A stretch of DNA of 64,000 bases from Promethearchaeota archaeon (GTDB taxonomy: Archaea > Asgardarchaeota > Lokiarchaeia > Sigyniarchaeales > SOKP01). The position numbers were made by a program, and so were the translations under genes. The notes beneath the pieces are model-generated. The model did no database searches, was not told the DNA's origin, and was given only the letters and a program-made list of their open reading frames with translations. Where the stretch lies: NCBI GenBank assembly GCA_019058245.1, contig JAHPZJ010000013.1, positions 73,166 through 137,165 on the forward strand, written 5' to 3'. Positions within the stretch are counted from its first letter, which is position 1. Each line of letters begins with the position of its first letter. Of the stretch, positions 15,217 through 64,000 are shown in pieces.

Positions 15217-16092
15217 ATAGCAGAAAAAAAGATAGATATCCTCTTAATTGAAGATAATAAAGCTGATGTACGTCTTATTGAAGAATTTTTGAAAAAATCT
15301 GAAGAATTCAAATTTAATTTAGAATCAAAACCTAGACTTTATGAAGGTATGAATTATCTTAAGTCTAGAGACTTTGATATTATTTTATTAGATTTAACCT
15401 TACCGGATAGTGATAAAGAGAATACTCTAGAAATTGTTTTAAACAATACTACCTCTATTCCTATAATTATTTTAACTGGATTAGATGATAAGGATATAGC
15501 ATTAAAATCTCTTCAAAAAGGTGCTCAAGACTATATACTAAAGGATGAATTAAATCAAGGAAATTTAACAAGAGCTATAATATATGCTATTGAAAGACAT
15601 AAAAGTAAAACTGAAAAGATAATAGAGAGAGCTTTAAAAACGCAATTTGATGAAAAAGATAAAGAAATTCTTAATTATCTACAAGACAATTATAAAATCT
15701 CATATAAAGATTTAAGTAAAAAAGTGAATTTAGCTGCCAGCACTATTCATAATCGAGTACAAAATATGATAAAAGAGGGAATAATAAAGAAATTTGATAC
15801 GTTTGTAGATCCTTTTAAAGTTGGATATACATCTATAGCCATTCTTGGTCTTTCTGTAGATCCGTTGAAATCTGAGAATATTGCTAGAAAACTCTCAAAA
15901 TATGATGAAATACAATTAGTTGCCTCCTCTACGGGAGATCATAATTTATTATTGAAAATTATTGCGAAAAACGAAAAATATCTTTGGAGATTTATAAATG
16001 AAGAAATTAAAACTCTAGATGGTATCCAATCACCAATACATGTTTCAAGCTTTTTAGATATCTTTAAAATGTCTCATAAAATTACCTTTTAA
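15217..16092 (+). CDS. response regulator: REC domain fused to an Lrp/AsnC HTH regulator; probable ATA start
   Basis: IDILLIEDN (upstream of the track start), LLDLTLPD, IILTG, GAQDYILK; then FDEKDKEILNYLQ..STIHNRV..GII and an AsnC C-domain. GGTGA+6 nt precedes ATA. Confidence 0.88.
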   Translation: MAEKKIDILLIEDNKADVRLIEEFLKKSEEFKFNLESKPRLYEGMNYLKSRDFDIILLDLTLPDSDKENTLEIVLNNTTSIPIIILTGLDDKDIALKSLQKGAQDYILKDELNQGNLTRAIIYAIERHKSKTEKIIERALKTQFDEKDKEILNYLQDNYKISYKDLSKKVNLAASTIHNRVQNMIKEGIIKKFDTFVDPFKVGYTSIAILGLSVDPLKSENIARKLSKYDEIQLVASSTGDHNLLLKIIAKNEKYLWRFINEEIKTLDGIQSPIHVSSFLDIFKMSHKITF

Positions 16093-16207: not shown

Positions 16208-17263
16208 TTATTCAAAAGCTTGAGGAATTAACATAATGAAATTACTTCCTTTTGAATAATCTCCAGCTACTTTATCCTCAACCCAAATTTTCCCGCTATA
16301 TTTTTTAAGTATTCTTTTAACGATTGATAATCCAATTCCCATACCTTTAGAATACTTATCTTTATGATTTCTTCTCTTAAAAATAATTTCTTTACGTTCA
16401 TCGGGAATTCCAATTCCGTTATCTTTAATTTCGATTTTTAAATAATTTATATCATTTATTTTTTCATTTGAGAGATTTATTTTAATTTCTACTAAAGAGC
16501 TATCATTATATTTCACAGCATTAATAAATAAATTAAAAAATACTTCATATAATAATTCATTTGCATTAATCCAAATGGTTTTATTTGGGATCTCTATATT
16601 GAAAGTTATTTCTTTATTCTGGTAATAATTTTTAATGTTTACAATTGACTCCTCAAGTATTTCTTTTATACTAATTTTTTTTAAATAAAATTGAGAATCT
16701 TCTAGTTTTGTTAGATTTTGTACATTTAAAGTTAATCTTACACCCCTAAGACATTGATCTCTTATTATTTCAATTAATTCATCTTGTTTATAGACCTTAT
16801 TGCCATTTTTTCTTAAAATTGTATAGAGTTCTGTAGAAGATAAAATATTTTGAAAGATATTATTCATATCATGGCTAATTAAATCTCTATAAAAAAGAAT
16901 GTTACGATATGCTTTAGTTAGTTCTTTAGTTTTTGAAATATTTTCACTTAAAGCAGTAACAATAATACCAACAATTATAATCATTATAGCCCTAAGAATT
17001 TGTTCTAAGTTCTGTAAATAATCAATAATTATACCAAAAAAGAAAGGAAATAAAATTAGTGAGAGTGCCAAATATATAGGGATAAATAAACCATACTTTT
17101 TCCACCAAAAACAAGCTAAAATTGTTGGAATATAGAAGAGATGTGAAAAAAAGATGTTAATTTTTAAAATTATTTGAAATAAATAATTCAAAACGGATGA
17201 AATAATTAAAAGTATGATTATAATGGCATACTTTATTTTTTTAGTGTAATTTTTAATCTTCAT
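16208..17263 (-). CDS. membrane-bound sensor histidine kinase
   Basis: N-terminal TM helices; H-box SHDMNN, N-box NAVKY, G1 DNGIGI, G2 GMGIGL. Confidence 0.92.
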   Translation of the reverse strand: MKIKNYTKKIKYAIIIILLIISSVLNYLFQIILKINIFFSHLFYIPTILACFWWKKYGLFIPIYLALSLILFPFFFGIIIDYLQNLEQILRAIMIIIVGIIVTALSENISKTKELTKAYRNILFYRDLISHDMNNIFQNILSSTELYTILRKNGNKVYKQDELIEIIRDQCLRGVRLTLNVQNLTKLEDSQFYLKKISIKEILEESIVNIKNYYQNKEITFNIEIPNKTIWINANELLYEVFFNLFINAVKYNDSSLVEIKINLSNEKINDINYLKIEIKDNGIGIPDERKEIIFKRRNHKDKYSKGMGIGLSIVKRILKKYSGKIWVEDKVAGDYSKGSNFIMLIPQAFE

Positions 17264-17342: not shown

Positions 17343-18644
17343 TTAATGCGTGGCACATGAAATACAAGGATCAAATGCTCTAATTATCATCTGTACTTCT
17401 TTTTCTACTAATTTAATATCACCAGTTTTATCAAATAGTTCTTGAGCATATTTAGTTATCATTTGATTAAGAAGTGGAATATTAAACTCCGTAGCAATGA
17501 ATAGTTTTATTTCATCAATAATGTTGTTTTTATTTATGTGATAATTATGTATTAAAGTTCCTCTTGGTGCTTCAATAACACCAATACCCTCATTCTTTTT
17601 AATAGATTTAAAAGAAGGAAGATACTTTCTAACATTTAATGAAGGTTCTCCCAATATCTGTATACATTTATATGATTCAATATATATTTCCAGTAATCGT
17701 AAAAAATTAATGAATAGTAAATTATTTGTCCATGATTTATTAAAATATTCAAGATATGTATTAATTTTATCAAAATCATACTTTTCAATAATTTTATAAC
17801 GTGAAAAAGGTCCAACTATTACATTTTTTTTATTTTCAAAAAAGAAATCAATACCTCTTAAATTTATCTCTTTATTAAAATATCTTGTATAGTTTTGAGC
17901 TTCAAATTCTATTAGATTTTTGTCTTCTTTAAGGCTTAAAGAACCAGAATATCGATCATAAATACCATGATTATTTTTCGCTAAACAAATAGTATTTGGT
18001 AAATTAAAATCTTCTGGAGGGATTTGATTACCAAATAATTTAATGAAATCTTCTATAATCCATTCTACAATCGTTAAGGCTTTTTGAAGATATTTTTGAG
18101 ATAATAAAATTAATTTTCCAGAAGGAGAATAAATAACACCTCCGGGAACAATTGAAATCAAGTGAACAGACCTACCACCAAAAATCTCATTGATTTCATT
18201 TCCAAATTTAATTAGATCGTATAAATTTGATGTTAATTGAGGATTAAATTTGATTAATTCATAGGGAGATAAAGTATTTTTACTAATATTAAAAATTTTT
18301 AAAAGATCTGGCAAAGTTTGAAAGAAAAAGTTCATTGAATGGGATTTTATTAATTCTGCTGTCATTAATAGGCGTCTTAAATAAATACTTTGTTCTGAAA
18401 TTTCTATATTGTAAATATCTTCTAAAGTTTTACAACTTGCAATTGCTTGAGAAGCATAACATAAACCACATATTCGAGATACAAATTTAGGAATATCAAG
18501 TAGCCTTTTACCTATTAGGAATTTTTCAAATCCCCTATATACGTTAAATTCAAAATTTGCTAATGAAACTTCATCATTTTGAAGCATAATTTTAACTTCT
18601 CCATGTCCTTCAACACGTGTACATACATTAACAATTTTTTGCAA
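17343..18644 (-). CDS. mvhA: [NiFe]-hydrogenase large subunit, group 3 (MvhA-like), atypical
   Basis: TRVEGHG, RGFE, RICGLC (L1), APRG, RAFDPCISCATH-stop (L2). Confidence 0.88.
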   Translation of the reverse strand: MQKIVNVCTRVEGHGEVKIMLQNDEVSLANFEFNVYRGFEKFLIGKRLLDIPKFVSRICGLCYASQAIASCKTLEDIYNIEISEQSIYLRRLLMTAELIKSHSMNFFFQTLPDLLKIFNISKNTLSPYELIKFNPQLTSNLYDLIKFGNEINEIFGGRSVHLISIVPGGVIYSPSGKLILLSQKYLQKALTIVEWIIEDFIKLFGNQIPPEDFNLPNTICLAKNNHGIYDRYSGSLSLKEDKNLIEFEAQNYTRYFNKEINLRGIDFFFENKKNVIVGPFSRYKIIEKYDFDKINTYLEYFNKSWTNNLLFINFLRLLEIYIESYKCIQILGEPSLNVRKYLPSFKSIKKNEGIGVIEAPRGTLIHNYHINKNNIIDEIKLFIATEFNIPLLNQMITKYAQELFDKTGDIKLVEKEVQMIIRAFDPCISCATH

Positions 18645-18649
18645 TAATA

Positions 18650-19408
18650 TTACCTATTAATCTTTGGTTTTGAAAATCGATTATAAATTCCAGTATATTT
18701 TTGCAATTCTTGAGAAAGTTCTATTAAACTCAAAAAATTTACAACATTAGATGTAAAATCTTTTGATACAGGCCCCATGCATCCTTCGCATGGAAGTCCC
18801 ATTTTTATACATTTATGCTCACAACCATCACGAGTTATTGGTCCCAAACATAAAATACCATTATTTAAAAAACATTCAGAGTTTTCTTCACCTAATCTAA
18901 TTTCTTCGGGATTAGGATTAATTTTAGTTATTTTTATATGGGAATTAATTTCTATACTTCCTCTTAATGGACAATTTGCACACATATTTTTTTCGGATAA
19001 AATTATATCTTTATTTCCAACCAAATTGATTAAACAATTTCCAAAAAATTTAGATGGAGGAGGACAACCAGGAATCATACCATCAATTTCAATATGATTA
19101 GATAAAGGCTCTGCTTTCTTTGAATTAGAAAGGCTTAAAATTCCACCAAAGCAAGCACATGTTCCTAATGCAAAAACTCTTTTAGCACGTTTTCTTATTT
19201 TTCTAATAAGATTTATTTGTGTTTCTTCAGAAATACATCCTTCTACTAATGCAATTTCGCATTCTTCTATATCATCTGAATCTAAAATAAATAGAAAATA
19301 GTTTATTTTTATTCTTTCAAGAAATTGGGGGAAAATATCTAAAGATATAAGAGTCGATATACATCCAGTACATGATGTAAGAGAAATTATATTGAATCTA
19401 GGCTTCAT
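18650..19408 (-). CDS. mvhG: [NiFe]-hydrogenase small subunit (MvhG-like)
   Basis: SCTGC, VEG, GTCACFGG, PGCPP, C..C, CFL..G.LCLGP.T..GC...C....PC.GC.GP. ATG at 19408 follows a GGAGGAG SD. Confidence 0.88.
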   Translation of the reverse strand: MKPRFNIISLTSCTGCISTLISLDIFPQFLERIKINYFLFILDSDDIEECEIALVEGCISEETQINLIRKIRKRAKRVFALGTCACFGGILSLSNSKKAEPLSNHIEIDGMIPGCPPPSKFFGNCLINLVGNKDIILSEKNMCANCPLRGSIEINSHIKITKINPNPEEIRLGEENSECFLNNGILCLGPITRDGCEHKCIKMGLPCEGCMGPVSKDFTSNVVNFLSLIELSQELQKYTGIYNRFSKPKINR

Positions 19409-21947
19409 ACTTAATCTCCTCCAATAGGTTATTATACAATTTATTAGCAGTATCAGCAAATTTATTTCCTTCAACAGCATTCAAATGTTTAAGGATTATT
19501 CGATCTTTATATTTTGGATCTATTACATTTTTTAATAGTCTGATTTTGTTTTCTATCTTTTTTACTCCATCTATATATCGACAAGCATCTTGTCTACATC
19601 CAACTATCATAACTCCATCGAAACCAAGTTCAAATGATTTAATAATAAAGTTTGTATCAATACGTCCTGTACAAGGAACTCTTACAATGAAAACATTAGG
19701 AGTATATGAAATCTTTTTTAGTCCAGCATTATCAGCTGCAGCATATCCACATGATGCACAACAGAAGGCAATGATTTTTGGATTTGATCTGAATTTTGAG
19801 AAAATCTTAATTGTCCTTAAAATTTTCTTAGAAGTATCTATATTTAGGTCTATAGCATTAGTAGGACAAATACTAGCACAAGTGCCACCCCCTTTACATT
19901 TGAATTTATCTATACTAATTTTATCCCTCTCTATTGTAATTGCATTATATGGACAAATTTTTAAACATAAACCACATAAACCACATTTATTTTCATCTAT
20001 TTCAATTCCAGTAAATTCTGCTATTAAATAATCCTTAGAAAGTAATGAAATGACTTTTAAAGCAACATTATTAGCTGTTGAAATAGTAGAATTATAATTT
20101 AAAGGACCGAAAATAGTTCCAACACCATAAATTCCGGATGCTAATGTGTCTACACTCATAAATCCGTTATTATCTAATGTAAAATCCATATATTGTCTAA
20201 GATTTTTTAAATCCTCATTTGGGATATATTTTATATTTAATACTATCAAATCGCTTTGAAATTCTATATTATCCGCAATAACATAATTTATATCTTTAGA
20301 AGATTTAATGCTAATTTTATTTGCATAAATAAATTTAGGGTTTGTAGATCTTAACAAAATCTCATCCTTATCCTTTAACCTACTTAAATCATAAAAAACA
20401 TTTACTTCACAATGAGGATTTCTTATTTTAACATCCTCAATATATTTTTCTGCTAAAATTTCAGAAAAATCTGATAGATATTTTGAAGGACCAACTTCTT
20501 GAATTATTGAAATGGAAATTATGGGCTTTTTATCTGATATCTTTACAAGTTTCCCATCAGTTAGGCCATCAGACGATAAAAGACGCTCAAATTCAGGTGA
20601 TGTTATTATATTTTTTTTTGGATTATAATTATATTCTTCTAAATCTTTATAAAAATCAGATCCAATAGCAATAACTTTAGTACCAACTTTTATTTCAATT
20701 CTTTCTTCTTTTTGATCCAAATCTATTGCTTTATTTATGCAAGCACGTTCACAAATCCTACAATTAAGACAATTCTTTAAATCTTCCTCATCTATCAAAG
20801 GAGCATAAGGATAAGAATGTATGAATGGAATATAAATTAATTTTCGATTACTTAAACCAAATTCATATTGATTTGGTTTTTCTATACTACAAACAGAAAT
20901 ACATTGTTTACATCCTGTACATTTTTTTACATCAACATATCTAGGTTTTTTAATCATATTAATTGTGAAATTTCCAACTTCTCCTGTTACGTTTTCGATT
21001 TCTGTATTTGTGAATATTTTTATATTTTTTTCATTAACTAACTCTGCTATTAATTCAGAAATAAAACATATTGAACAATCACCCATATTATGAATTCTGT
21101 GCCATCTAGCTACCTTACCTCCTAAGGTTGGTGATTTTTCAATAAGATATACTTTTATTCCTGCTCGTGCTAAATTTAAAGATAAAGTTATACCAGCAAT
21201 TCCTCCACCTAAAACAGCACAACTTTTCTCAATTTCAACTCTCTTTACTTTTATTTTTTTTTGAAAACTTACACGTTCAACAGCTGCCTCAATTAATAAC
21301 TTCCCTTTTTCTAGAGGAAGTGATAGATTGTTTTGTTCATCATTTGGTTGATGTACCCAACAACATTGTTCTCTAATATTAGCAATTTCAATATTAGTAT
21401 GATCAATAATATCTTCAAAAATTCTTTCAAAAAGATTTTGGTGAGTTTTAGGAGAACAAGCAGCTATAACTATTTTATTTATAAAATTATCTTTTACCCA
21501 ATTACGAATTTTCTCAAAGTTTTTTTGCTGACAAAGGTTTTCAAATACTTTTACCGAAACTACTTTTTTTAATTTATTTACGTAATTTTCAAGTGCTTTT
21601 ATATTAATTACATTTGAAATTTCTGTATTACAATTACAAATAATTACTCCAACACGACTTATTTCGCTTCTCTTTGAATCAAAATACTCGTCAATAAATT
21701 CTCCTGCTAAAATTCTCTTATTAAGATTAATAATTTTTAAAACACGTTTACCATCTTCTGTGAGAAAATATGCTTTATTGTCCTTACCTATTAATGAACC
21801 AATCTTTTTAAGGTGAAAATTTAATTGTCCAGTCGTATCTAAATTGAGTTTTTCCATTAATTCGGTATATGGAATATATCCTTCTTTTTCTAAAAGAAAT
21901 AAAATCTTTCGTCTAAACGGATGAGATAATATTGAATATATATCCAT
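19398..21947 (-). CDS. winged-HTH / degenerate HdrA / MvhD triple fusion protein
   Basis: N-terminal ArsR-like wHTH (SHPFRRKILFLL..LNFHLKKI..YFLTEDG); HdrA motifs (ICNC, ACSP, NIREQCCWVH, GGGIAG, ferredoxin repeats, EFERL); C-terminal MvhD (FCC..C, RVPCTGRID, GC...CRY). Confidence 0.88.
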   Translation of the reverse strand: MDIYSILSHPFRRKILFLLEKEGYIPYTELMEKLNLDTTGQLNFHLKKIGSLIGKDNKAYFLTEDGKRVLKIINLNKRILAGEFIDEYFDSKRSEISRVGVIICNCNTEISNVINIKALENYVNKLKKVVSVKVFENLCQQKNFEKIRNWVKDNFINKIVIAACSPKTHQNLFERIFEDIIDHTNIEIANIREQCCWVHQPNDEQNNLSLPLEKGKLLIEAAVERVSFQKKIKVKRVEIEKSCAVLGGGIAGITLSLNLARAGIKVYLIEKSPTLGGKVARWHRIHNMGDCSICFISELIAELVNEKNIKIFTNTEIENVTGEVGNFTINMIKKPRYVDVKKCTGCKQCISVCSIEKPNQYEFGLSNRKLIYIPFIHSYPYAPLIDEEDLKNCLNCRICERACINKAIDLDQKEERIEIKVGTKVIAIGSDFYKDLEEYNYNPKKNIITSPEFERLLSSDGLTDGKLVKISDKKPIISISIIQEVGPSKYLSDFSEILAEKYIEDVKIRNPHCEVNVFYDLSRLKDKDEILLRSTNPKFIYANKISIKSSKDINYVIADNIEFQSDLIVLNIKYIPNEDLKNLRQYMDFTLDNNGFMSVDTLASGIYGVGTIFGPLNYNSTISTANNVALKVISLLSKDYLIAEFTGIEIDENKCGLCGLCLKICPYNAITIERDKISIDKFKCKGGGTCASICPTNAIDLNIDTSKKILRTIKIFSKFRSNPKIIAFCCASCGYAAADNAGLKKISYTPNVFIVRVPCTGRIDTNFIIKSFELGFDGVMIVGCRQDACRYIDGVKKIENKIRLLKNVIDPKYKDRIILKHLNAVEGNKFADTANKLYNNLLEEIKYEA

Positions 21948-22033
21948 TTTATTAATTCACCTTTTTTTCTGATATAAGAGACCTATTTTAATATTTCCTT
22001 TTATGATAATTTTAATAATTTTTTTTTTCCCTA

Positions 22034-22064
22034 TGATTAATATTATTGTCAGATTATTTAAATA
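22034..22064. promoter_or_regulatory. TATA-like TATTTAAATA next to a TGA(T/C)(T/A)A-N6-TTGTCA site, upstream of the HTH-hdrA operon
   Basis: The 16-mer TATTATTGTCAGATTA is identical at 22041-22056 and 29542-29557. Confidence 0.5.
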
Positions 22065-22453
22065 TGATCTATTTGGTCTATCTGATTATCAATATTGATA
22101 GAGTAATATGTACCAATACTCTATATTATATTATGTGAATGCTAAATATGGTTTCGGAAAAGGATCAAATAGAGATCAGATCAATAAAAATAGTAAATAA
22201 ATAATAAACAAATTTGTCAAAATAATTATAACTTTTTAATTAAAATTCCTTGAATTGTTATTCTCTGGTTGGATAATAGGAACATATTCTTAGAAAAAAT
22301 TATAATTACTTTTATGTAAATCTTCTTAATAAATTAGTATTCAAAATTTCAATAACAAAATGTGGTGATTTCTTTAAAATATTAAGAATAATTTCCTTGA
22401 ATTATAGATATGATACCCATAATAAATTTTGATTAAGATTTCTTAATCTAAAT

Positions 22454-23569
22454 TTAATTCTTAGTTTTTAAGGAAATTAATTTTTTAAACCACTCTAATT
22501 TTTGGTTCTTCCACTGAATAGTCTTGTCAAATGGAACAATAAATTGTTCGATTATATCTTTTGAAAACATGCTATTTATTACTTTTTCACCACGTTCACT
22601 CCGAATTAATATCATAGAATATCCTTCTGGAGCACCAGATGCCCCAACGCTGATATCTGTAAATCGCCCTGTGAATTCATCACACTCAAGGCAATTACTT
22701 CTGACAGCGGGATTTAGAGTTTTTATGTCAATTTCATATTGTTTTTTGTCTTTGGTTTGGAGAAAAAAATTCTTTTTTATCCATGTTTTTTTGATATTGG
22801 TTGGATCAACATTAGTTTCTCTTTCTATAATATCATATAATTGAGAATGATTAAAATTTTCAAAGCAGAAAAGACCAATATTATATTTAATTATGTGAGC
22901 AGGTTTAACATCTAGGAATTTCATTTTACTTATAGCCCTACATTGGCAGGGAGTACCGATAAATGCTATTCTAAGCTGGTCAGTATTAAATATCTCCTTT
23001 TTCTTAAGAATTTCCTGTGGTAATTTATTTATATTTTTTAATGGAAATATTTGAGGAGAAATGGAATATCGTGTACCTGCTGATTTAAATAAATCTTCTT
23101 TATTAAATATAATTTTTGGAATAGGTTCAAAATTATCATTGAACTCTGAAACAATAGCGGCATCAATTTTATGCTTCTCAAAAAGATAAATAAGAATTGC
23201 TGATACTATTCCTCCGTTTTGTCCAATTTCTTTTAATGTTGAATTTGTTGTTTTAGCAGCCAGGATTTTTCTAATATGTCCTATTTTATCGTGAACATAA
23301 TAATTATTATTTAATTCCTTCATTAATGTTTTAGTTTGAGGACATATATAATAACAAATACCACATTTATTGCAATTATCAATACTCTTTTTAGATTTAA
23401 ACCTAGGCGTATTATCAATCATCTCGATAACATCAAAACCTTGACTTTCGCAATAAGCTATACATGCTCCGCATGCACAACATTTTTCATTTTGAATTAT
23501 TTCATTTTCAAGATCCTCAAAAGTGGGTATATTACTTCTTATTACTTTTTGAAATTCTGATTCAGTCAT
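22454..23569 (-). CDS. FrhB/FdhB-family F420-binding flavoprotein with N-terminal 2x[4Fe-4S] ferredoxin
   Basis: Two CxxCxxCxxxC motifs, GQNGGIVSAIL, AGTRY, GTPCQ, IGLFC, C..C..F....DISVG..G. Confidence 0.9.
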   Translation of the reverse strand: MTESEFQKVIRSNIPTFEDLENEIIQNEKCCACGACIAYCESQGFDVIEMIDNTPRFKSKKSIDNCNKCGICYYICPQTKTLMKELNNNYYVHDKIGHIRKILAAKTTNSTLKEIGQNGGIVSAILIYLFEKHKIDAAIVSEFNDNFEPIPKIIFNKEDLFKSAGTRYSISPQIFPLKNINKLPQEILKKKEIFNTDQLRIAFIGTPCQCRAISKMKFLDVKPAHIIKYNIGLFCFENFNHSQLYDIIERETNVDPTNIKKTWIKKNFFLQTKDKKQYEIDIKTLNPAVRSNCLECDEFTGRFTDISVGASGAPEGYSMILIRSERGEKVINSMFSKDIIEQFIVPFDKTIQWKNQKLEWFKKLISLKTKN

Positions 23570-23584
23570 TTTTTTTTCCTCTTT

Positions 23585-24064
23585 TTAATTTTTTTTGATA
23601 TTATAATCTAATTCAATTATTCCAGATTTTTTTGGAATTTTCAATTCTCCTAAATCAATAATTTTATTTGTAAAATCTGTAATTAGCTCAGAAAATTGTT
23701 TTCCTTCACTTGCTGAAATAGAGTATAGTTCAAATCGTTCTTCCTCAATTCCAATATATTTAATTAACTTTTTTAAATGCTCCATTCTATTTTGTGTATA
23801 CTTGAATCCTTTTATATAATGACAGTCACCCATATGACAGCCAATAACTAACACTCCATCTATTCCATTATTAAATGCCCTTAAAACAAACGTGGGCTCA
23901 ACTCTACTAGAACACATAACTCTAATAATCCTAATATTTGGCGGATATTGGAATCTCGAAACCCCCGCTAAGTCAGCTCCCGCATAACTACACCAATTAC
24001 AACAAAATACTAGAATATTAGGTTCATATTCATATTGACTTGCTTTTTTAGTTTTCAACAACAT
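23585..24064 (-). CDS. mvhD: MvhD [2Fe-2S] adaptor subunit
   Basis: FCCNWCSYAGAD, RVMCSSRV, GCHMGDCHY, SASEG; ATG at 24064 after GGAGGA. Confidence 0.93.
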   Translation of the reverse strand: MLLKTKKASQYEYEPNILVFCCNWCSYAGADLAGVSRFQYPPNIRIIRVMCSSRVEPTFVLRAFNNGIDGVLVIGCHMGDCHYIKGFKYTQNRMEHLKKLIKYIGIEEERFELYSISASEGKQFSELITDFTNKIIDLGELKIPKKSGIIELDYNIKKN

Positions 24065-27000
24065 AATTCCTCCTAAATTTAATAGATTCATATTCTAATA
24101 GATCTATATTGGACATTAAATCAATCATTTTATTAATTTGGAACTTACTAAAATGATTCTGATCAATAGCTCCAACGGAACATTCTGTAACACATGATCC
24201 ACATCCTTTACAAAGTGCTTTAATTATATGCGCTTTTCTTAACTTCATGCTATATAGACCCATTTGTTTATTACTCTCAATTATTTCTATTGCATTGTAT
24301 GGGCAAACTTCAATACATTTACCACATCCAATGCATTTTTCTTCATTTATATGAGAAGTAATGCATTCTGTTTCTATTTCACCTTTCACCATTATTATTG
24401 CGGCTCTCCCTGCTGCGCCATATGCTTGGATGATACTCTCTTGAATCCATTTGGGCCAATGAGCACCACCACAAAGAAAGATTCCTTCTGTAGCAAAATC
24501 TATTGGCCTGAGTTTCGCATCAGCTTCTAAGAAAAATCCATCTTTATTTGTTGTTACTTTTAACATTTTTGATAATCTTTTAGTATCTTTAGTAGGAACG
24601 TTAGGAGTTGCTAATATTAATAAATCGGTATCGTACTCAATATCCGTTTGAGCACTTATATTTTTATACTTAATATGAAAGTGATTATTTATACTATTAA
24701 TTTTGATATCATCAATCGATTGATATCTTTCATAAGTAGCTTTATTTCGAAGCCCTCGACATAGATTTTCTGCATTTAAATCTGAAAATTGAAGTTCTCT
24801 ATATAAAATATGAATTTGCGCATCAGGATTAATTTTCAATAATTTTTCTATATTTTTTAAGGCTACTCCACAACATATATTTGAGCAATATGTTTTTGTA
24901 TAACTTGCGTTATTATATTTATCTTTTCTTTGATCTACGCATAATATTATAGTGGCATCTTTAAACTTAGGAACTTCCTCATCTTTCATTCCAGTCAGTT
25001 CTGTTTGAGTAAATACACGATTGGGATGCTTTTCTGCTAAATCTTTCCATTTGATTGTTTTAATCTGCTTAGTTCCTGTAGCAATTATTATAGTGCCAAC
25101 CTTTATTATTTGTTCTTCAGAATTGTCTTTTGTATTTTTAACTTTTACATGATAATTTCCCACATAACCTTGAACATCAATAATTTCTGTGTTAAATAAA
25201 ATTTTGACATTTGAATTATTTTTTAAATCATCAATTTGCTGCAAAATTTCATTTTTAGTAATAGCTATATAATATAGATCAACAAATTCTAGTGCACTAC
25301 CACCAAGAGTAGCTTTATTGTCGATAAGATACACTTTGAATCCTTGATTTGCTAAATTATGAGCAGCAGTTATACCTGATAGTCCAGCACCGATTACCAT
25401 TGTTGATTTTTCAACTTTGACTTTAATAGTTTCTAATGGTTTTAAATTAATTACTTTGGCTAAATACATTCTAATTAAATCACAAGCCTTTCTAGTAGCC
25501 TTTTCAGGTTCCTTCATATGTACCCAAGAAGCTTGATTTCTTATATTAACTAATTCAAATAAATATGGGTTCAATCCAACCTCTCTGAGAGTATTTTTAA
25601 AAAGTTGTTCATGTGTTCGAGGAGTACAAGATGCAACAATGAATCTATTGAGTTTATGTTTCAAAATTAATTTTTTAATTAGTTCTTGGGAATCAGAACT
25701 ACATGAATACATATTTTCTTCAACATGGACTACATATGGTAATTTAGAGACATACTCTACTACTTTAGGAACATCGACAATACCTCCGATATTTATCCCA
25801 CATTGGCAGACTAATACACCTACGCGAGGCTCATCTTCTAAACTTACTGGTATTTCAGGAGGATACTTAACTTTCTGTATATTTTTAAATCTTAGAGAAT
25901 AAAATTTTTCACTTATTTTAGCGGCGCAAGCAGAACCTTCTGCAACAGCCATTTGAATATCATTAGGTTTACGTGAATTACCAGTTACAAATACATTCTT
26001 TTTCTCAAGTAACTTTATATCTTCTTCACGAATATATCCTAAATGATTCTTATCTAAATTGAGTTGTTTTAAAAATTCATAATAAGATGGAGCTGGAGAC
26101 AAGGCACTAGCTAATACAGCCATGTCAACTTCAAAATTGTCAACTGTACCTCTATTAATATCTTCATAATATAATCTTAATTTTCCATTATCTAAATTTT
26201 CTTTAATATATGAAACGTGACCATTTATATATTTAACATCATATTCATCTTTACTCTTTTCAATAAATTCATTAAAATTTTTACCTTTTGCTCTTATTTC
26301 TGTATTAAAAATATAACATTCTATATTTGGATCATGTTCCTTACATACAATTGCTTCTTTAGCTGAATTCATACAACATATCGCTGAACAATATTTTTTA
26401 CATTCAGGATGATGAAAATCTCGAGATCCTACACATTGAATAAATGCGATTGAATCAGGGTGCTTTTTATCATCTAATCTTAATATTTGCCCTACAGTAG
26501 GTCCATTTGCGGATAATAGACGTTCAAATTGCATATTAGACAAAACATTGGGAGATTCCCCTGCAAAATTTTTGTATACTTCTGGCATTTGCTGACTTGT
26601 TCCTGTAGCAATAACAATGGCTCCTACATTTAGAGTTATTTCTTCTGGTTTTTGAAAAAAATCTATAGCATCCGCGCTACAAACTTTGGCACAAAGTCCA
26701 CATATTTGATGATTTAGATATAAACATCTTGATTCATCAATAAGATATACTGGAGGTACTGATGATGGAAAAGGAATATATACAGCAGCTCGGGTTTTTA
26801 AATTGGTATCAAAATCACTAGGGATTCCTCTAACTGGACAAATATTTTCACAATCACCACATCCCTTACAAATATTTTCGTTTATATATCTTGGTTTTTT
26901 AATAACCGTAATTTTATAATCTCCAGCAGTTCCATCGATTTTTTTAACGTATGAATAAGTTAACAATTCGATATTCGGATCTCTATACACATCAACCATT

Positions 27001-27191
27001 TTTGGTGCTAGGATACATAAACTACAATCAAGCGTAGGGTATATTTTATCTAATTGTGCCATCGTTCCGCCAATAGTTGGTTTAATTTCAACTAAATATA
27101 CCTTAAATCCTAATTTTGTTAAATCTAGGGATGCTTGTATACCAGAAATTCCTCCTCCTATAACCAAAACATCACTCTGGAAATTTGACAT
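24048..27191 (-). CDS. hdrA: heterodisulfide reductase subunit A, long form with two FAD modules
   Basis: GGGISG, DKIYPTLDCSLCIL, QCVGSRD..CSAICC, VCQCGINIG, SCTPRTHE, second GAGLSG, CSNICC, GFFLEADAKLRP, C-terminal 2x CxxCxxC. Confidence 0.93.
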   Translation of the reverse strand: MSNFQSDVLVIGGGISGIQASLDLTKLGFKVYLVEIKPTIGGTMAQLDKIYPTLDCSLCILAPKMVDVYRDPNIELLTYSYVKKIDGTAGDYKITVIKKPRYINENICKGCGDCENICPVRGIPSDFDTNLKTRAAVYIPFPSSVPPVYLIDESRCLYLNHQICGLCAKVCSADAIDFFQKPEEITLNVGAIVIATGTSQQMPEVYKNFAGESPNVLSNMQFERLLSANGPTVGQILRLDDKKHPDSIAFIQCVGSRDFHHPECKKYCSAICCMNSAKEAIVCKEHDPNIECYIFNTEIRAKGKNFNEFIEKSKDEYDVKYINGHVSYIKENLDNGKLRLYYEDINRGTVDNFEVDMAVLASALSPAPSYYEFLKQLNLDKNHLGYIREEDIKLLEKKNVFVTGNSRKPNDIQMAVAEGSACAAKISEKFYSLRFKNIQKVKYPPEIPVSLEDEPRVGVLVCQCGINIGGIVDVPKVVEYVSKLPYVVHVEENMYSCSSDSQELIKKLILKHKLNRFIVASCTPRTHEQLFKNTLREVGLNPYLFELVNIRNQASWVHMKEPEKATRKACDLIRMYLAKVINLKPLETIKVKVEKSTMVIGAGLSGITAAHNLANQGFKVYLIDNKATLGGSALEFVDLYYIAITKNEILQQIDDLKNNSNVKILFNTEIIDVQGYVGNYHVKVKNTKDNSEEQIIKVGTIIIATGTKQIKTIKWKDLAEKHPNRVFTQTELTGMKDEEVPKFKDATIILCVDQRKDKYNNASYTKTYCSNICCGVALKNIEKLLKINPDAQIHILYRELQFSDLNAENLCRGLRNKATYERYQSIDDIKINSINNHFHIKYKNISAQTDIEYDTDLLILATPNVPTKDTKRLSKMLKVTTNKDGFFLEADAKLRPIDFATEGIFLCGGAHWPKWIQESIIQAYGAAGRAAIIMVKGEIETECITSHINEEKCIGCGKCIEVCPYNAIEIIESNKQMGLYSMKLRKAHIIKALCKGCGSCVTECSVGAIDQNHFSKFQINKMIDLMSNIDLLEYESIKFRRNYVVEN

Positions 27192-27233
27192 ATAAAATAG
27201 TTTTTAAAAATTTTTTTTTAATTTTATTTTAAC

Positions 27234-28439
27234 CTATATAATCATTAACAATTTGCCTATAAAACTGGCTAAATCAATTACTTTTATATTACTAGAAAAT
27301 TCATTATGCTCTTTATTGAGAGACAATTCATTTAAATAACAATTAAAATGTGTTAGACATTTAGGACAAGGAACAATTAAATATTCAGCTCCAGTTTCAA
27401 TCGCTTCATTAATACGATTTTGTCTTATATAACGTGTGTATTCACTACAATTTGTAAATGCTGAAACGCCACAACAATTAGCATCATCTTTAATATTTTC
27501 CATTTCAATTAATTTTACACCTGGAATTTTTTTTATTAATTCTCTAGGAGTATCATACAATTTTCCTCCTAGGCGTCCTAATCGGCAAGAATCGTGATAT
27601 GTTACATTAATCTTAGAATTATGCGTATATTTTATATTTTCAAGAATATTTTCTCTAAGAAAGAATTCGGAAAAATGTAAAACTTCAAAATCAAAGTCTT
27701 TAATAATTTTCGGATAATCATATTTCCATGTTCTATATCCTTCAGCGCATCCAACAATAATAGTCTTTACTCCTGCATTTTTATAAAGTTGAGTATTATA
27801 TTCAGCAAGCTTTCTAAATGTTTCATTATCGCCTCTACCCCATAAAATATCATGTCCACAACATTTTTCATCTAGAACTACTGGATTTATACCATTTTCA
27901 TTAAGTAAATTTATAATTGTTACAGGAATATCCGTATAATTGATATCAAAATTATAGAAAAGATCATCCATTATAGATAAGCATCCAACAAAATATGCAA
28001 TTTCGCCTGAAGTTGTAGTTTTTAATTCATTTTTCTCTAGAAAATCTAACTTATTTGGACTTGAAGGATTATGTGCCATAATTTTAGAAATCAAAGTGAA
28101 AATATCATTATGAGTTTCGCATTTAACAATCTTTTTTATTTCTGAATTGTTTTTATTTGAAATTTTTCTTAATTCTAAAATCAATTCTGGTATTCTCACA
28201 CCCTGATTTTCACGTGTCATAGGACAGTAAATTGAACATTGTCCACAAGTTAGACAATTCCAAATATTATTTTTTGCTATAACTTCTTCCATTGTAAAAA
28301 AGTTTAAATCTGAAACTAAATCTTTAGGATAAAAGACGTCTAAGTGGGAAAGTGGACATACATTAACACAACGATTACAACTATAGCAATAATTAGTAAA
28401 AGAACTTATATTTTTAATTATTTCTTGAGAATCTAACAC
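27234..28439 (-). CDS. HdrD-like Fe-S oxidoreductase (4Fe-4S dicluster plus two CCG domains)
   Basis: CYSCNRCVNVCP, CLTCGQCSIYCP, YFVGC, KCCG, YHDSCRLGR, NCCG, PCPKC. Confidence 0.9.
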   Translation of the reverse strand: MLDSQEIIKNISSFTNYCYSCNRCVNVCPLSHLDVFYPKDLVSDLNFFTMEEVIAKNNIWNCLTCGQCSIYCPMTRENQGVRIPELILELRKISNKNNSEIKKIVKCETHNDIFTLISKIMAHNPSSPNKLDFLEKNELKTTTSGEIAYFVGCLSIMDDLFYNFDINYTDIPVTIINLLNENGINPVVLDEKCCGHDILWGRGDNETFRKLAEYNTQLYKNAGVKTIIVGCAEGYRTWKYDYPKIIKDFDFEVLHFSEFFLRENILENIKYTHNSKINVTYHDSCRLGRLGGKLYDTPRELIKKIPGVKLIEMENIKDDANCCGVSAFTNCSEYTRYIRQNRINEAIETGAEYLIVPCPKCLTHFNCYLNELSLNKEHNEFSSNIKVIDLASFIGKLLMII

Positions 28440-29534: not shown

Positions 29535-29557
29535 TGACAACTATTATTGTCAGATTA
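29535..29557. promoter_or_regulatory. inverted repeat TGACAA-N6-TTGTCA, putative operator
   Basis: Perfect arms at 29535-29552 in the 1-kb divergent intergenic region; shares a 16-mer with 22041-22056. Confidence 0.5.
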
Positions 29558-29711: not shown

Positions 29712-30338
29712 ATGATTAAAATGGAAATATTAGAATTAAAGCCAATAAAGAATAAAAAAATTGTTGTGTATATGTCTTCTAAAGAAAGTGCTAAATATTT
29801 CCAAAATGAAGAACATTCAAAACTAATTGAATTCTTAAAAAAGAATAATATTGACTTTGTTACTGTAGACTTTCAAGTGGATATGAAAGAATTTGGTAAA
29901 ACTCAATTCGCAAAAATATTGAATGAATTAAAAATTCCATATTTTCAAGTAGATATTCCTGATTATGCTATGGGATATTTATATCAAGAAATACTTGAGA
30001 AACAAGAGTTCCAAAATGAATTATTTGAAGAATATGAAAGTATGGAGGATAAGGATTCATATAAGGGTTTGAGTTTAAAAAATTGGATTGATTTATTAAC
30101 AGAAGAAATTCAAGAAAGAGAAATATTTCTTAGTTTAAAGTTAAGACCTCAATGGATTGTTAAGAAAATGCTAGATTTAGCATCATCTTTTGAAAAAGAT
30201 TTAGTTTTTTTTGTTCATTTTGTTCAAGAAGATATATGTGAAGACATTTGTCCACAAATAGTTGAAAATTTAAGAGAATTAGGAATAAAAGTAATATCCT
30301 ATAATAAAAAACATACTATACAAAAAGTTATATTTTAA
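29712..30338 (+). CDS. hypothetical protein (paralog of the next gene; possibly TraB/EreA/Tiki-like fold)
   Basis: 208-aa ORF; N-terminal LELKPIKNKK; R.QW...KML.LA pattern. Confidence 0.6.
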   Translation: MIKMEILELKPIKNKKIVVYMSSKESAKYFQNEEHSKLIEFLKKNNIDFVTVDFQVDMKEFGKTQFAKILNELKIPYFQVDIPDYAMGYLYQEILEKQEFQNELFEEYESMEDKDSYKGLSLKNWIDLLTEEIQEREIFLSLKLRPQWIVKKMLDLASSFEKDLVFFVHFVQEDICEDICPQIVENLRELGIKVISYNKKHTIQKVIF

Positions 30339-30363
30339 TTAAAAAAAGGAGGGGGTTAAAAAA

Positions 30364-31092
30364 ATGCCAGAAGTATTAGAATTAAAACCTTTAAAAAATA
30401 AAAAGCTAAAATTGGTATTGATAGAAAGCGAATTTCCTATCGATTGGTGGTTTGACGTTCCTAAGACTTTAAAGGAAGATCTTTTTTGGAATCTTCGATT
30501 AATTTCTAAGGAATATATTCAATTAATTGATTCGTTAATTGAAAAATATAAGCCCAAAATTGCGTTGGAAGAAAGACCAAATTTTTGGAATACTACAAAT
30601 AATTCAGAGGATCCTTTAAAAAAGTTATTTCAAATGCGAAATATACCATTTGACTACGCTGATATTTCAGAAAATGCTGAATTATATCTATCATCCGCTT
30701 TAGAAGAGCATAGAACAATGATCCAGCATCTTGAGAGAAGGATTAAGGAAGTTATGAAGAGTAGTGGAGGTATTCCTAATAATGACGATACTTTTAATCG
30801 AATTGTATTATGGAAGGATTATTTACAACAAGATTATAAATTTCAAGAAGATGAAGTAAGATACAAAGTTCGAGAAGCATGGATGATGATGAAAATTTTA
30901 AATCTTGCCAAAAAAATAGAAGCAACTAATTTCAAAGCTATGTTTATTTGTGATATTAGCCACTTCAATGGTCTTGAAAAACTTTCAGAAGAATTAGGTA
31001 TTGAAGTCGAACAAGTAAGAATAAAAAGGACAATTAAAACTGAAGATGTTAAGGAAATATTTGAAAAAGATTTAGAAGTTGAAATTTCTTAA
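30364..31092 (+). CDS. hypothetical protein (possibly TraB/EreA/Tiki-like fold)
   Basis: N-terminal LELKPLKNKK; IALEE, REAWM..KIL, FICDISHFNGL. Confidence 0.6.
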   Translation: MPEVLELKPLKNKKLKLVLIESEFPIDWWFDVPKTLKEDLFWNLRLISKEYIQLIDSLIEKYKPKIALEERPNFWNTTNNSEDPLKKLFQMRNIPFDYADISENAELYLSSALEEHRTMIQHLERRIKEVMKSSGGIPNNDDTFNRIVLWKDYLQQDYKFQEDEVRYKVREAWMMMKILNLAKKIEATNFKAMFICDISHFNGLEKLSEELGIEVEQVRIKRTIKTEDVKEIFEKDLEVEIS

Positions 31093-31127
31093 ATTATTAA
31101 TTTTATTTTTAGATATAAAAAAAAGGG

Positions 31128-32123
31128 TTGATAAAAATGGTTGAAAGAGAGGTTGAAAGTATTTTAGGAAGAAAATCAATAATAGAATTAACACCTATTA
31201 TCATTAAAAAGAAAGATACAATGGATAAAATTTGTTATTTCTTTGATACTGATGATAATGCGTCTCCTTTTGATATTAATATGGCATATGATGCAGGATT
31301 TGATATTGTTATACCTATCAGTAAAATGAAAGCCGAATACGTACCAAAATTAATACAAGATGCTATCTTTTCTCGTAAACCTAATGCACCCACAACTTTT
31401 TTTATTGGAGGTTCTGATGTTAAGGAAGGTGAGAAGATAGCAAAAGCAGCAAAAAAATCCTTAGTCCCTCCTTTTGAATGTCCTATTATAATTGATCCCC
31501 GAGGATCTCATACTACAGCTTCCGCTGTAGTTGCAATGTCTTTGGATATAGCTAATAGAAAACATGGAATTAAGAATTTAAAGGGTAAAAAAGTAGTTAT
31601 ATTTGGAGCGGGGCCAGTTGGTAGAATAGCAGCGATTTTAGCTTCAAAAATTGGATGTAATACGTTTTTAGTGGAAACATGGGATAAATCTAATGAGGAT
31701 TTTATAAAAAAATTAGCAAAAGACCTCACTCAAGAAGCAGGAGAAGGAGCAACAGAAATTTCTGGTCTTTTTGCTCCTTTAATTAAACAAAGATTTGATA
31801 TTGTAAAGGATGCTGATGTTATATGGTCTTTAGCAGCTGCAGGTGTTGAAATTCTAACTCAAGAATGGATGGAAAAGTTGCCAGGTAAAAAAATAGTTGT
31901 AGATATTAATTTGGTGCCACCATATGGTATTGAAGGTCTTAAGCCAAAACATAAGAATGATGAGATCTATCCTGGGATTTTTGGAATTGGGGCATTAGCT
32001 TTAGGACGTCTAAAAGCTAATTCAGAAGGTCAAATATTAAAAGAGGCTTCAAATACAAAGGGACTAAAAATTTTTGATTATAATTATGCTTTTACGGTTG
32101 CTAAGGAACTTCTAAAAAAATAG
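31128..32123 (+). CDS. NAD(P)-dependent methylene-H4MPT dehydrogenase, MtdA/MtdB family
   Basis: DTDDNASPFDINMAYDAGFD, AIFSR.P, FIGG.D, DP.GS.TTA.A, G.GPVG, D.NLVPP.GIEG, GIGALA.G. Confidence 0.85.
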   Translation: MIKMVEREVESILGRKSIIELTPIIIKKKDTMDKICYFFDTDDNASPFDINMAYDAGFDIVIPISKMKAEYVPKLIQDAIFSRKPNAPTTFFIGGSDVKEGEKIAKAAKKSLVPPFECPIIIDPRGSHTTASAVVAMSLDIANRKHGIKNLKGKKVVIFGAGPVGRIAAILASKIGCNTFLVETWDKSNEDFIKKLAKDLTQEAGEGATEISGLFAPLIKQRFDIVKDADVIWSLAAAGVEILTQEWMEKLPGKKIVVDINLVPPYGIEGLKPKHKNDEIYPGIFGIGALALGRLKANSEGQILKEASNTKGLKIFDYNYAFTVAKELLKK

Positions 32124-61375: not shown

Positions 61376-63055
61376 ATTATTAGAAAGAGAACAATCTTAA
61401 TTATAATATTTTCAATAACATCTATTATTGTCCAATTATTCGGAGTGCAATATCTAGGCATTAAATTTACATCTCATGATCTTGAATTTGAATATGTTTA
61501 TAATTGGGACTTAACGGGAACTGGGGGATGGTATGAAGGGTATGAAGAAGCTTTTAGAGCAAAAGGTCATTATAGTATTGTTTTTAACGAAAATTATGCA
61601 AATGTAACAGCTCGAGTTTCATGGAAATTTTCTGAAAACTATTATGGGACCTCACAACGTGGATTAGATACATATATATTTTCATATTCATTAATCGATG
61701 GAGCTTATATATGGGGGACTGATCAAGATGTCCTTAATACTACAAATATGAATGTCTGGTTTCATATTCCTGGAGGGATTAAGGCATCTAAATATGATAT
61801 TCTCGATACATCATATAATGTAAAAAGTGGAGAACATCTTATTTGGGTTGGATCACTAATGCCTTTTAATGGAAAGAAACTTCATAGTGAGGGAAATTAT
61901 TTTCGAGATGATATATATGGTGAATTTGATGTTATTTATGAGGTGGGTAATTTCTTTTCAAAGGAGGGTTATTTAATTGGCGAATTATATAAAGAACAAG
62001 ATTCGGGGTATGATAGGGATACAGGACGTTGGTCAACATTTAGATTAGATTCCTATATTTTTATTACATCTTCGAGTTATCTAAGGCCTTTTAATTTTGG
62101 AATCTACTTTTTAGTGTATTGGGCTCCAATATTATTATGCATGATTCTATTTTATGTTCTATATGAAAACCTTCGTTGGAGACCAAGAATAATTCCGAAA
62201 GGATATGAAGAAATAACCGTTGAGAGAAATTTACCTCAATTTGAGAGTTTTGGGATACAATCGGCTTATTCAGAAATGATACCTTCATATTTAGTTAGAG
62301 CAAGATCTCATGAAAAAAAAATTGTGAGTGCTCATAAAAATGGCGTAATAGAAGGAATAGGATTTATTGATTCAAATGGAAAAGTTGGGACATTTTATGG
62401 AAGTCATGTAGGAGATATGGTAAAATATACTAAAGTAAAATATTTATTTACAGAAATAGGAAGAGGATTAAGAGGTTTTAACACAATCGAGAAATATGAT
62501 ATCTTTGAAATTGATAATATTCAAGAATTAGATTTAAGTTTTGATACTGTAAATATAAAGCCTCTTGAGGAAATTCATTTAGAAGCTATTATGAAAATGA
62601 TAGCAAATGAAGATAGTGGTAAAAAAAGGAAGAAATTTGCTAAGTGGGTTATTAAATCCTATGAGGATGATATCGCGGTTAGTTCTACAGTACCAAGGAC
62701 AGAGCCTTGGGTTCAATCAATAATATCGGATTTATTTCGAGGTGATTATCCCAAACCAGAAATTATAGATGATGAAATAATATTGGGTGTAGGCTTCGCA
62801 ACTCCTGGAGAAGAAACAGGATGGTTATACGGTCTTTATGTACATCCTGCTTTTAGAAATCATGGGATAGGGAGAATGCTTGTATCAGCTCGATTATCAT
62901 CTCTTAAGGAAATTGGTTGTAGACGAGTGATTACGGAAATAGCTGAATGGAATAGCCCTGCAAAAAACATATATGATGATTATAATGCACGAATAATAGG
63001 AAAAATTAATCTTTTAGGTAAAAAAATGCCTAAAGTTAAGGTGAGACGCTACTGA
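61376..63055 (+). CDS. membrane-spanning protein: extracellular domain, TM helix, C-terminal GNAT domain; probable ATT start upstream of the track's GTG
   Basis: In-frame signal-like extension IIRKRTILIIIFSITSIIVQLFG after a GAGGAG SD; GNAT motif YVHPAFRNHGIG..L, N.PA..IY. Confidence 0.75.
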   Translation: MIRKRTILIIIFSITSIIVQLFGVQYLGIKFTSHDLEFEYVYNWDLTGTGGWYEGYEEAFRAKGHYSIVFNENYANVTARVSWKFSENYYGTSQRGLDTYIFSYSLIDGAYIWGTDQDVLNTTNMNVWFHIPGGIKASKYDILDTSYNVKSGEHLIWVGSLMPFNGKKLHSEGNYFRDDIYGEFDVIYEVGNFFSKEGYLIGELYKEQDSGYDRDTGRWSTFRLDSYIFITSSSYLRPFNFGIYFLVYWAPILLCMILFYVLYENLRWRPRIIPKGYEEITVERNLPQFESFGIQSAYSEMIPSYLVRARSHEKKIVSAHKNGVIEGIGFIDSNGKVGTFYGSHVGDMVKYTKVKYLFTEIGRGLRGFNTIEKYDIFEIDNIQELDLSFDTVNIKPLEEIHLEAIMKMIANEDSGKKRKKFAKWVIKSYEDDIAVSSTVPRTEPWVQSIISDLFRGDYPKPEIIDDEIILGVGFATPGEETGWLYGLYVHPAFRNHGIGRMLVSARLSSLKEIGCRRVITEIAEWNSPAKNIYDDYNARIIGKINLLGKKMPKVKVRRY

Positions 63056-64000
63056 TTGAAAATATAACTTATAATTCGCTTTATCATCAGAGTTTATTAA
63101 ATTCTATTAACTTTAATTTATTTAAGGTTGAACCAGAGGAGATTGATATAAATGAGCAATTTAAATTACCTAAAGAATGGTATAGTACCTATTTGGGAAC
63201 TGCTACAGCGGAATTTCATGGTTTGAATCATAAATCAATACCCGCTATTAGAGATGAAAATAGAAATGCAATAATTCCAGAAAAATTCATTGAAATTGAA
63301 GGAAAAATCTTTTATTTATCAGTAAAAGGATGTGGAGCATATGAAGATATGTTTTTTGGGGGAAAACTTAACCCTAGTAAAATAAAGAACGCATGTCGAG
63401 ACTTAAAATATCTAGACAAAATTGAAAAATTATCCACTGGATTAGGATTTATAATGGGGGAGTCTTGGATGGGTGAAAGTCCATATGGAGCTCAAGGCTT
63501 TATTAATGGATTTGATGAATTGAACTTTTCTAGAATTGCTAAATTGGATTCTATTAATGGTGCTTATATCTGTCCCTCTATAGCTGTTATTAAACTCCCT
63601 AAATATATAGAAGACACCGCGAGAAATTTCTTTTGGTTTCGAACCTATAAAAATCATTTCTATCAAATACTACGTCTGCTTCCTTCAAATATACGATTAT
63701 ATTTTGAATCATCTAACGTAGTTGCTAATCCTGGTTCTATTTTTAAATTATTTGAGATTAATACTGTAGATAAAGCACAAATTTTTGAATTAAATTTTAT
63801 CAAAAGTGGAATTGCTCTTTTAACACTTTATACTCGTTCTGCAATAATTGAAGGAAATCAAGTTAAAGGTATTTATTTTCAAGATGTATGGTTAGATAAA
63901 GATTGTGTAGTAGCTCCAAATGGAACAATTCATTTCGCTGATATTGAAGGATTTATTTGGAAAAAAGTATCTATTGATAAATATAATGAAATTCAGAAAA
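63052..64000 (+). CDS. hypothetical protein, possibly kinase-like fold; 3'-truncated
   Basis: Frame open from after TAA 63037 to the window end; CTG at 63052 overlaps the previous TGA; LSVKGCG and VVAPNGTIHFADIEG motifs. Confidence 0.65.
   Translation, partial: MIENITYNSLYHQSLLNSINFNLFKVEPEEIDINEQFKLPKEWYSTYLGTATAEFHGLNHKSIPAIRDENRNAIIPEKFIEIEGKIFYLSVKGCGAYEDMFFGGKLNPSKIKNACRDLKYLDKIEKLSTGLGFIMGESWMGESPYGAQGFINGFDELNFSRIAKLDSINGAYICPSIAVIKLPKYIEDTARNFFWFRTYKNHFYQILRLLPSNIRLYFESSNVVANPGSIFKLFEINTVDKAQIFELNFIKSGIALLTLYTRSAIIEGNQVKGIYFQDVWLDKDCVVAPNGTIHFADIEGFIWKKVSIDKYNEIQK

Follow-up and report, generated by a model that had tools for sequence, protein, structure and literature searches.

The window, a 64,000-nucleotide stretch of a contig from a Promethearchaeota archaeon of the Lokiarchaeia, carries on its minus strand a gene (19398-21947, an open reading frame of 849 aa) in which a wHTH (winged helix-turn-helix) domain is fused to a type Ia-like HdrA without the cluster HA4 and to MvhD. 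Directly behind it on the same strand lie the genes of a hydrogenase, mvhG (18650-19408) and mvhA (17343-18644), and upstream of it lie palindromes that we regard as putative operators. A first-pass annotation of this sequence had described the fusion as an HdrA that had lost its catalytic motifs and kept its electron wire; the dedicated hydrogenase and the operator were absent from it. Relatives are labelled Promethearchaeota or Lokiarchaeia.

Domain organization of the fusion protein

The first 80 residues (21708-21947, minus strand) form the wHTH domain, as indicated by Pfam, structure and codon substitution rates. DUF7347, a Pfam wHTH family, matches residues 2-73 above its cut-off (E 7e-10), and the ArsR-type structure 1y0u is a weak match to the same residues (E 0.003). 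In an AlphaFold model, residues 10-80 follow the order helix-strand-helix-helix-wing-helix with a predicted local distance difference test score (pLDDT) of ~80. The model matches wHTH domains of the MarR, HxlR and ArsR types with Z-scores of 10-11, the three types lying within about one Z unit; for 2rdp the figures were Z 11.4 and a root-mean-square deviation of 1.8 over 76 residues. The wHTH in the fusion is real; the first-pass annotation had called about 75 N-terminal residues ArsR-like, and in the structural comparison the three types tie. The domain is devoid of cysteine, its recognition helix (aa 39-48) is nearly invariant, and it is joined to the HdrA N-terminal domain through ~20 conserved residues. 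Complex prediction with two wHTH copies (aa 1-92) gave a score of 0.31, which is below the mark and is evidence neither way.

The HdrA part, on the same strand, begins with the N-terminal domain (21252-21659), which holds the ligands of the HA3 shuttle cluster (C104, C106, C139, C164 and C195). It continues with the flavin adenine dinucleotide (FAD)-binding segment (20943-21236), where Trp282 replaces the canonical Leu-Asp-Lys-Thr family-wide and the pair C291/C294 is conserved, and with an inserted ferredoxin domain (20703-20942) whose eight invariant cysteines correspond to two clusters. The following segment (20442-20588) retains E454 and K501, equivalent to Glu356 and Lys409; the stretch between these two residues that once formed the HA4 motif (aa 481-502) has no cysteine. 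A C-terminal ferredoxin domain (19833-20015) and the fused [2Fe-2S] MvhD domain (19398-19784) complete the protein. Besides DUF7347, Pfam recognizes FAD-binding, ferredoxin and FlpD/MvhD domains. The NCBIfam model HdrA2 covers aa 98-841 at half its cut-off (582 versus 1100), and the fusion scores under every NCBIfam HdrA cut-off. The full-length AlphaFold model is weak around the FAD and the ferredoxins (pLDDT 61), too weak for mapping of the flavin pocket.

Lost and retained cofactor sites

The cofactor sites were followed in 119 full-length Lokiarchaeia-type orthologs (66-87% identity), aligned together with the window protein as 120 sequences (66-100%). Alignment to the solved HdrA structures 8RVU and 5ODC revealed that the CVGSR..CSxxCC motif is replaced, a change that recurs in all close orthologs: none of its four cysteines is left in the window protein, and 31 of the 120 close orthologs keep the first one alone. 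We take this motif, by the 5ODC structure, to be the four-cysteine site of the flavin-adjacent [4Fe-4S] cluster HA4. HA4 carries the high-potential electron out to HdrB (PMC13580544); its loss would leave no exit to HdrBC, and canonical heterodisulfide-coupled bifurcation would therefore be excluded in this lineage. Genes for HdrBC partners were found in the three-gene operon of no locus, and an HdrD-like gene lies in the adjacent operon. Lacking the HA4 ligands, the window fusion falls, as judged by its sequence, outside the family of bifurcating HdrA.

The ligands of HA3, of the inserted and C-terminal ferredoxins and of MvhD are invariant or nearly so in the 120 sequences, and the GGGIAG motif is present and invariant, as the first-pass annotation had read them in the window protein. 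C291/C294 are likewise invariant, as are E454 and K501 (120/120 for both). The equivalent cysteine pair sits between MvhD and FAD (PMC13580544), and Glu356/Lys409 have been suggested to mark off bifurcating HdrA from the non-bifurcating kind (PMC12054007). One branch of the predicted electron wire is thus cut while the flavin residues stay, which inverts the earlier description: the wire lost its HA4 exit, and the residues around the flavin were kept. The GFFxExxxKL segment, previously reported as missing, is shortened, and it is equally short in relatives that still hold HA4.

A further substitution, in the second motif of the C-terminal ferredoxin (CKGGGTC), had also been noticed. Codon 687 (19887-19889) is indeed GGT, encoding Gly, at a position that is Cys in 119 of 120 clusters; Gly occurs otherwise only in L011 (GGC) and L026 (GGT), making three related genomes. 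An assembly error was rejected because L011 and L026 share the residue, and a family hallmark was rejected because of the 119 clusters with Cys; in the alignment, C687G is a genuine change of a small clade. By analogy with ferredoxins, Gly687 could give a [3Fe-4S] cluster.

The lost motif and the Cys-to-Gly change might be read as signs of a decaying HdrA paralog. Full-length orthologs are numerous, and the ratio of nonsynonymous to synonymous substitution rates (dN/dS) is 0.106 over 14 independent pairs and 0.05-0.16 across every domain. The wHTH is the most constrained domain (0.05), and even the former HA4 region reaches only 0.16. These values refute decay, to which we assign practically no weight, and bear out the expectation of purifying selection on the orthologs.

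The hydrogenase partner genes

The MvhG-like hydrogenase small subunit comprises 252 aa when read from its second Met; its start overlaps the stop of the fusion gene, and its cluster cysteines are invariant. mvhG directly follows the fusion in all 39 loci with room for it, and mvhA comes next in 36; the same gene order is found in Thorarchaeia-like, Helarchaeales and Bathyarchaeia relatives. The MvhA-like [NiFe] large subunit has its four Ni ligands intact. Two features set it apart: Gln instead of the usual His after the first CxxC motif (36/36), and absence of the cleavable C-terminal extension (34 of 35 complete orthologs). Gln66 of the window protein aligns with Q67 of Cupriavidus necator HoxC, and both proteins, unlike HoxG, stop at the last motif His. 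Gln at this position and absence of the tail are traits of regulatory hydrogenases (PMC5665086, PMC8229454). The best matches of MvhA are nevertheless group 3 types (VhuA, MvhA and sulfhydrogenase); by this sequence-level descent, and with a kinase that is not conserved, the window hydrogenase lies outside group 2b.

The kinase in question is a membrane histidine kinase encoded behind mvhA (16208-17263), convergent to a REC-AsnC regulator gene (15289-16092) whose reading frame seems, from the first standard start, to be without its N-terminus; few relatives have the two genes. Their position directly behind mvhA would suit an H2 sensor built as a two-component system like HoxBC-HoxJ-HoxA. However, mvhA has the kinase behind it in just 4 of the 36 loci, and at the distant loci never, which makes this arrangement very improbable; synteny led us to reject both genes as parts of the system.

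The genome also encodes, at another place (G000:C13:324132-325439), a housekeeping large subunit of the His type, together with several HA4-complete HdrA paralogs. The housekeeping subunit is of a VhuA-like split form without the C-terminal Cys motif, and no partner peptide was found in the 440 nt scanned. HdrA-like genes number well over ten, in several architectures, on contigs C2, C6, C13, C17, C24 and C28 of the same assembly (G000). TGA stops, possibly selenocysteine codons, lie inside several HdrA paralog matches (L004, L007 and L008). Among more distant large subunits, those of family f18 (L093-L097) and of a Bathyarchaeia locus (L110) have Lys for Arg in the RxCGxC motif, and those of the Thorarchaeia-like L098, L100 and L101 are without the N-terminal Glu; these sequence changes suggest that hydrogenases of further branches, too, are altered or inactive.

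A palindrome at the operon promoters

Promoters were searched for the consensus TGAYAA-N6-TTRTCA, with halves 12 bp apart and up to one mismatch. The palindrome is present in 37 of 40 operon promoters, exactly in 31, against a mean of 1 in shuffled sequences; exact palindromes at other spacers were not found (0), and 12.5% of other genes in the loci carry the palindrome. It persists upstream of fusion orthologs at 36-56% identity. In 27 of 37 orthologous sites it lies 3 nt downstream of a TATA box. This composite of TATA box and site occurs once each in 18 of 301 genomes, all of this family, with zero matches in controls, and is absent from the 16 family genomes in which neither the fusion nor its partner gene was found; the compared genomes are kin rather than independent samples, and some are incomplete.

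Upstream of the fusion in the window, putative operator 1 (22034-22051, one mismatch) lies 3 nt downstream from the fusion operon's TATA box (22055-22062, minus strand). In archaea a site just behind the TATA box points to repression, and the position suggests that the fusion operon is repressed through its own site. Putative operator 2 (22202-22219), 168 nt upstream, serves in relatives a divergent split-hdrA operon that is deleted here. Putative operator 3 (29535-29552) is perfect and lies between two divergent operons described below. A fourth match with one mismatch (63069-63086), behind a gene ending at 63055, is probably due to chance. We consider it very probable that the fusion itself binds TGAYAA-N6-TTRTCA.

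Probable target operons

Family-wide, the sites mark two divergent promoter pairs and track both through rearrangements. The first pair opposes fusion-mvhG-mvhA, in some loci with frhB, to a split hdrA. The second opposes hdrD-hdrA-mvhD-frhB to an operon of two paralogs and an mtdB-like gene. In the window the former operon of the second pair (22454-28439, minus strand) encodes HdrD-like, two-FAD HdrA, MvhD and FrhB-like proteins, and its regulation is inferred from the site. The latter (29712-32123, plus strand) encodes two paralogous proteins of unrecognized family and an MtdB-like methylene-tetrahydromethanopterin dehydrogenase, and is likewise a probable target; it is co-distributed with the fusion. 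The HdrA of the first of these operons (24048-27191) had served as the intact reference for the fusion; it does have all the motifs, but it is a rearranged, type II-like protein with two FAD domains and so offers no like-for-like copy. Hdr-like flavoproteins, FrhB and an Mtd-like enzyme would fit, from their predicted functions, a switch for H2/F420/C1 electron flow.

A partner protein of 242 aa and the fusion were both found or both missed in 66 of 68 family genomes; its fold matches are weak (ChaN, Z 8.5; CbiL, 8.9), and it is weakly ChaN/EreA-like. Relative to the closest relative, positions 21948-22453 of the window show two clean deletions (compared with L011:4212-7910), which removed the divergent split hdrA (~2.1 kb) and a second frhB (~1.17 kb) and kept both intervening operators. 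In many relatives the second paralog of the 29712-32123 operon is fused to the MtdB-like dehydrogenase.

Distribution and order of changes

The fusion was found in 71 of 301 Asgard genomes. At 50% identity its sequences fall into only about seven clusters, one being from Bathyarchaeia. Distant orthologs (Thorarchaeia-like and Bathyarchaeia, 36-53% identity) carry the wHTH together with the hydrogenase genes, Trp282 and the shortened GF segment, and in most the site lies upstream, yet all four HA4 cysteines are kept and the large subunit is of the His type and ends in a short tail. In a quick tree that carries a long-branch warning at its root, the members without HA4 group as a single clade with a support of 95, nested within fusions that keep HA4. 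Within this clade a Helarchaeota-labelled member has Gln and the tail, and the window's family has Gln and no tail. Since distant orthologs keep HA4 together with the wHTH, the fusion is older than HA4 loss, and the order read from the sequences is wHTH fusion and operator, then loss of HA4, then His-to-Gln, then loss of the tail. HA4-intact relatives already have the wHTH and operator, so that HA4 loss is a later specialization and not the origin of the switch. The earlier proposal of a redox switch rather than a bifurcating enzyme is thus upheld as to a regulatory role, for which the operator speaks, and not as to the losses being what makes the switch.

In the Bathyarchaeia loci L110, L112 and L113, gcvH, NuoE/F/G-like genes and a gene for Oxidored_q6-ferredoxin stand ahead of the fusion operon, which here keeps HA4; gcvH has a perfect AGACAA-N6-TTGTCT in front of it, and a further site lies before the downstream major facilitator superfamily gene.

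A putative redox-responsive repressor complex

Sequence comparison establishes the anatomy of the fusion, the selection acting on it, the operon, the operator, the regulon layout and the order of losses. From this we infer a working model that extends to complex formation, DNA binding, redox switching, the H2 signal, the arm mechanism and the binding state. The three genes probably encode a one-component, H2- or redox-responsive repressor complex that is itself the transcription factor. Responsiveness of the complex to redox state or H2 is likely, slightly more so than the model as a whole, and we somewhat favour sensing as the main role in this lineage.

MvhA, MvhG and the FAD-containing HdrA would form a soluble hydrogenase-flavoprotein complex. 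H2 would be oxidized at the dedicated Ni site of MvhA, and electrons would pass to the clusters of MvhG and from there via the C-terminal ferredoxin and the MvhD cluster, past Cys291/Cys294, to FAD. Without HA4 the flavin could not feed HdrBC, and HA3 and the inserted ferredoxin would be left as an exit or reset route. The wHTH is predicted to be attached to the N-terminal domain, which in methanogen Hdr is part of a rotating arm; the reduction state could plausibly alter wHTH geometry and hence binding to the palindrome, and the state of the arm could determine how far apart two wHTHs lie on the site. In one redox state, the fusion operon and the hdr/frhB/mtd operons would be repressed.

The bare palindrome occurs genome-wide at chance frequency (5 versus 3.9), for which reason a large regulon was rejected and a small one is implied. 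Several observations weigh against this model. The palindrome was not found in family f18 or in two f9 loci, and four other DUF7347 wHTH proteins are encoded in the genome and could bind it. HA4 and a standard hydrogenase are present in basal orthologs. A functioning enzyme would require the flavin Glu/Lys, the Cys pair and every cluster other than HA4, and all of these are retained. Non-sensory hydrogenases without a large-subunit tail also exist. The Gln of regulatory hydrogenases is reported to have, seemingly, no part in the sensing as such (PMC5665086).

The chance frequency of the bare palindrome, the other DUF7347 proteins and the presence in f18 of the wHTH without the site would agree with a protein that is an enzyme only, non-bifurcating or with a new bifurcating exit, whose wHTH has a structural role while the palindrome is read by a different factor. 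However, the recognition helix is the invariant part of the domain, the site accompanies the fusion in different classes and also where genes were rearranged, and G228, the sole family genome with an mtd gene in which no fusion was found, has no site at that gene. We consider the enzyme-only explanation improbable.

A stronger case can be made for a trigger enzyme resembling PutA, in which catalysis as an H2:ferredoxin, or FrhB-mediated F420-linked, oxidoreductase is the main job and repression of its own regulon the second. The invariance of E454, K501, C291/C294, HA3 and both ferredoxin domains would be expected of such an enzyme, frhB is co-transcribed with the fusion in about half of the loci, and the basal members look fully catalytic; this is likely the ancestral state. 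In the window's lineage, however, HA4 was lost and the hydrogenase then acquired two sensor-type traits, and the genome also encodes a distinct hydrogenase for housekeeping, as well as several HdrA with a complete HA4 motif. For this lineage we hold the trigger enzyme to be unlikely, though the foremost competitor of the repressor complex; if catalysis were the main role, the class would reduce to a variant of PutA-type trigger enzymes.

Only tentatively do we extend the repressor model to an archaeal sensor devoted to H2, where the hydrogenase would be wired through Fe-S clusters and flavin directly to a DNA-binding domain with no kinase, the Hdr arm cycle would be converted into operator binding, and the whole would have arisen stepwise from a catalytic trigger enzyme, convergently with bacterial sensor hydrogenases. 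To our knowledge, the characterized H2 sensors are bacterial and signal through kinases. The module would name a sensor, an operator and target operons for archaeal H2-responsive transcription, and models of how eukaryotes arose give a central place to the H2 exchange between Asgard archaea and their partners. Some Asgard annotations as group 3c/HdrA may accordingly denote regulators. A natural HdrA with Lys409/Glu356 but without HA4, beside HA4-keeping relatives, also offers a test of the requirements of flavin bifurcation.

Comparison with known systems

A literature search combining HdrA, HTH and Asgard returned no paper on a wHTH-HdrA fusion (subscription papers were not covered). The 'possible energy-transferring complex' of Helarchaeota (PMC6478937, Fig. 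5) likewise combines three genes, for HdrA/FlpD, Oxidored_q6 and a hydrogenase-type large subunit (Hel_GB_A_03070-03090), and is probably the Helarchaeota version of the window operon, whose Helarchaeota-labelled ortholog is L108. Seitz et al. 2019 read that cluster as membrane-linked and bifurcating, with the wHTH, HA4 loss and operator unmentioned.

The fusion shares ~34% identity over the whole HdrA with methanogen MvhAGD-HdrABC (5ODC, 8RVU) and the type Ia HdrA-MvhD (HdrA2). HA3, both ferredoxin domains, the FAD fold, Glu356/Lys409, the Cys pair, MvhD and the MvhAG partner are common to MvhAGD-HdrABC and the fusion; in contrast, the fusion has an N-terminal wHTH, lost HA4 ligands, remodelled FAD-proximal and GF segments, and no hdrBC in its operon. 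With HoxBC-HoxJ-HoxA of C. necator (group 2b) the window system shares the Gln at Q67, the missing tail and coexistence with an energy-converting hydrogenase. Unlike it, the window hydrogenase is group 3-derived, neither a kinase nor a response regulator is conserved beside it, Leu/Gln stand where HoxC has Ile62/Phe110, and the output domain is on the flavoprotein.

By role, the nearest archaeal regulator is SurR of Thermococcales, an ArsR-related wHTH redox switch over electron-flow genes (PMC12162507); SurR, however, stands alone, with a CxxC in its wHTH and a GTT-based site, whereas the window wHTH has no cysteine and another palindrome. Trifunctional PutA of E. coli is also a flavoenzyme with an N-terminal DNA-binding domain and an autogenous repressor with a functional switch (PMC5293562). 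The likeness is one of analogy only: the folds are unrelated, in that PutA joins a ribbon-helix-helix domain to proline dehydrogenase, and PutA switches to the membrane and has no hydrogenase or Fe-S wire. In function, the window system would by analogy resemble a blend of the two: a regulatory hydrogenase as the input, and PutA as the self-repressing flavoenzyme.

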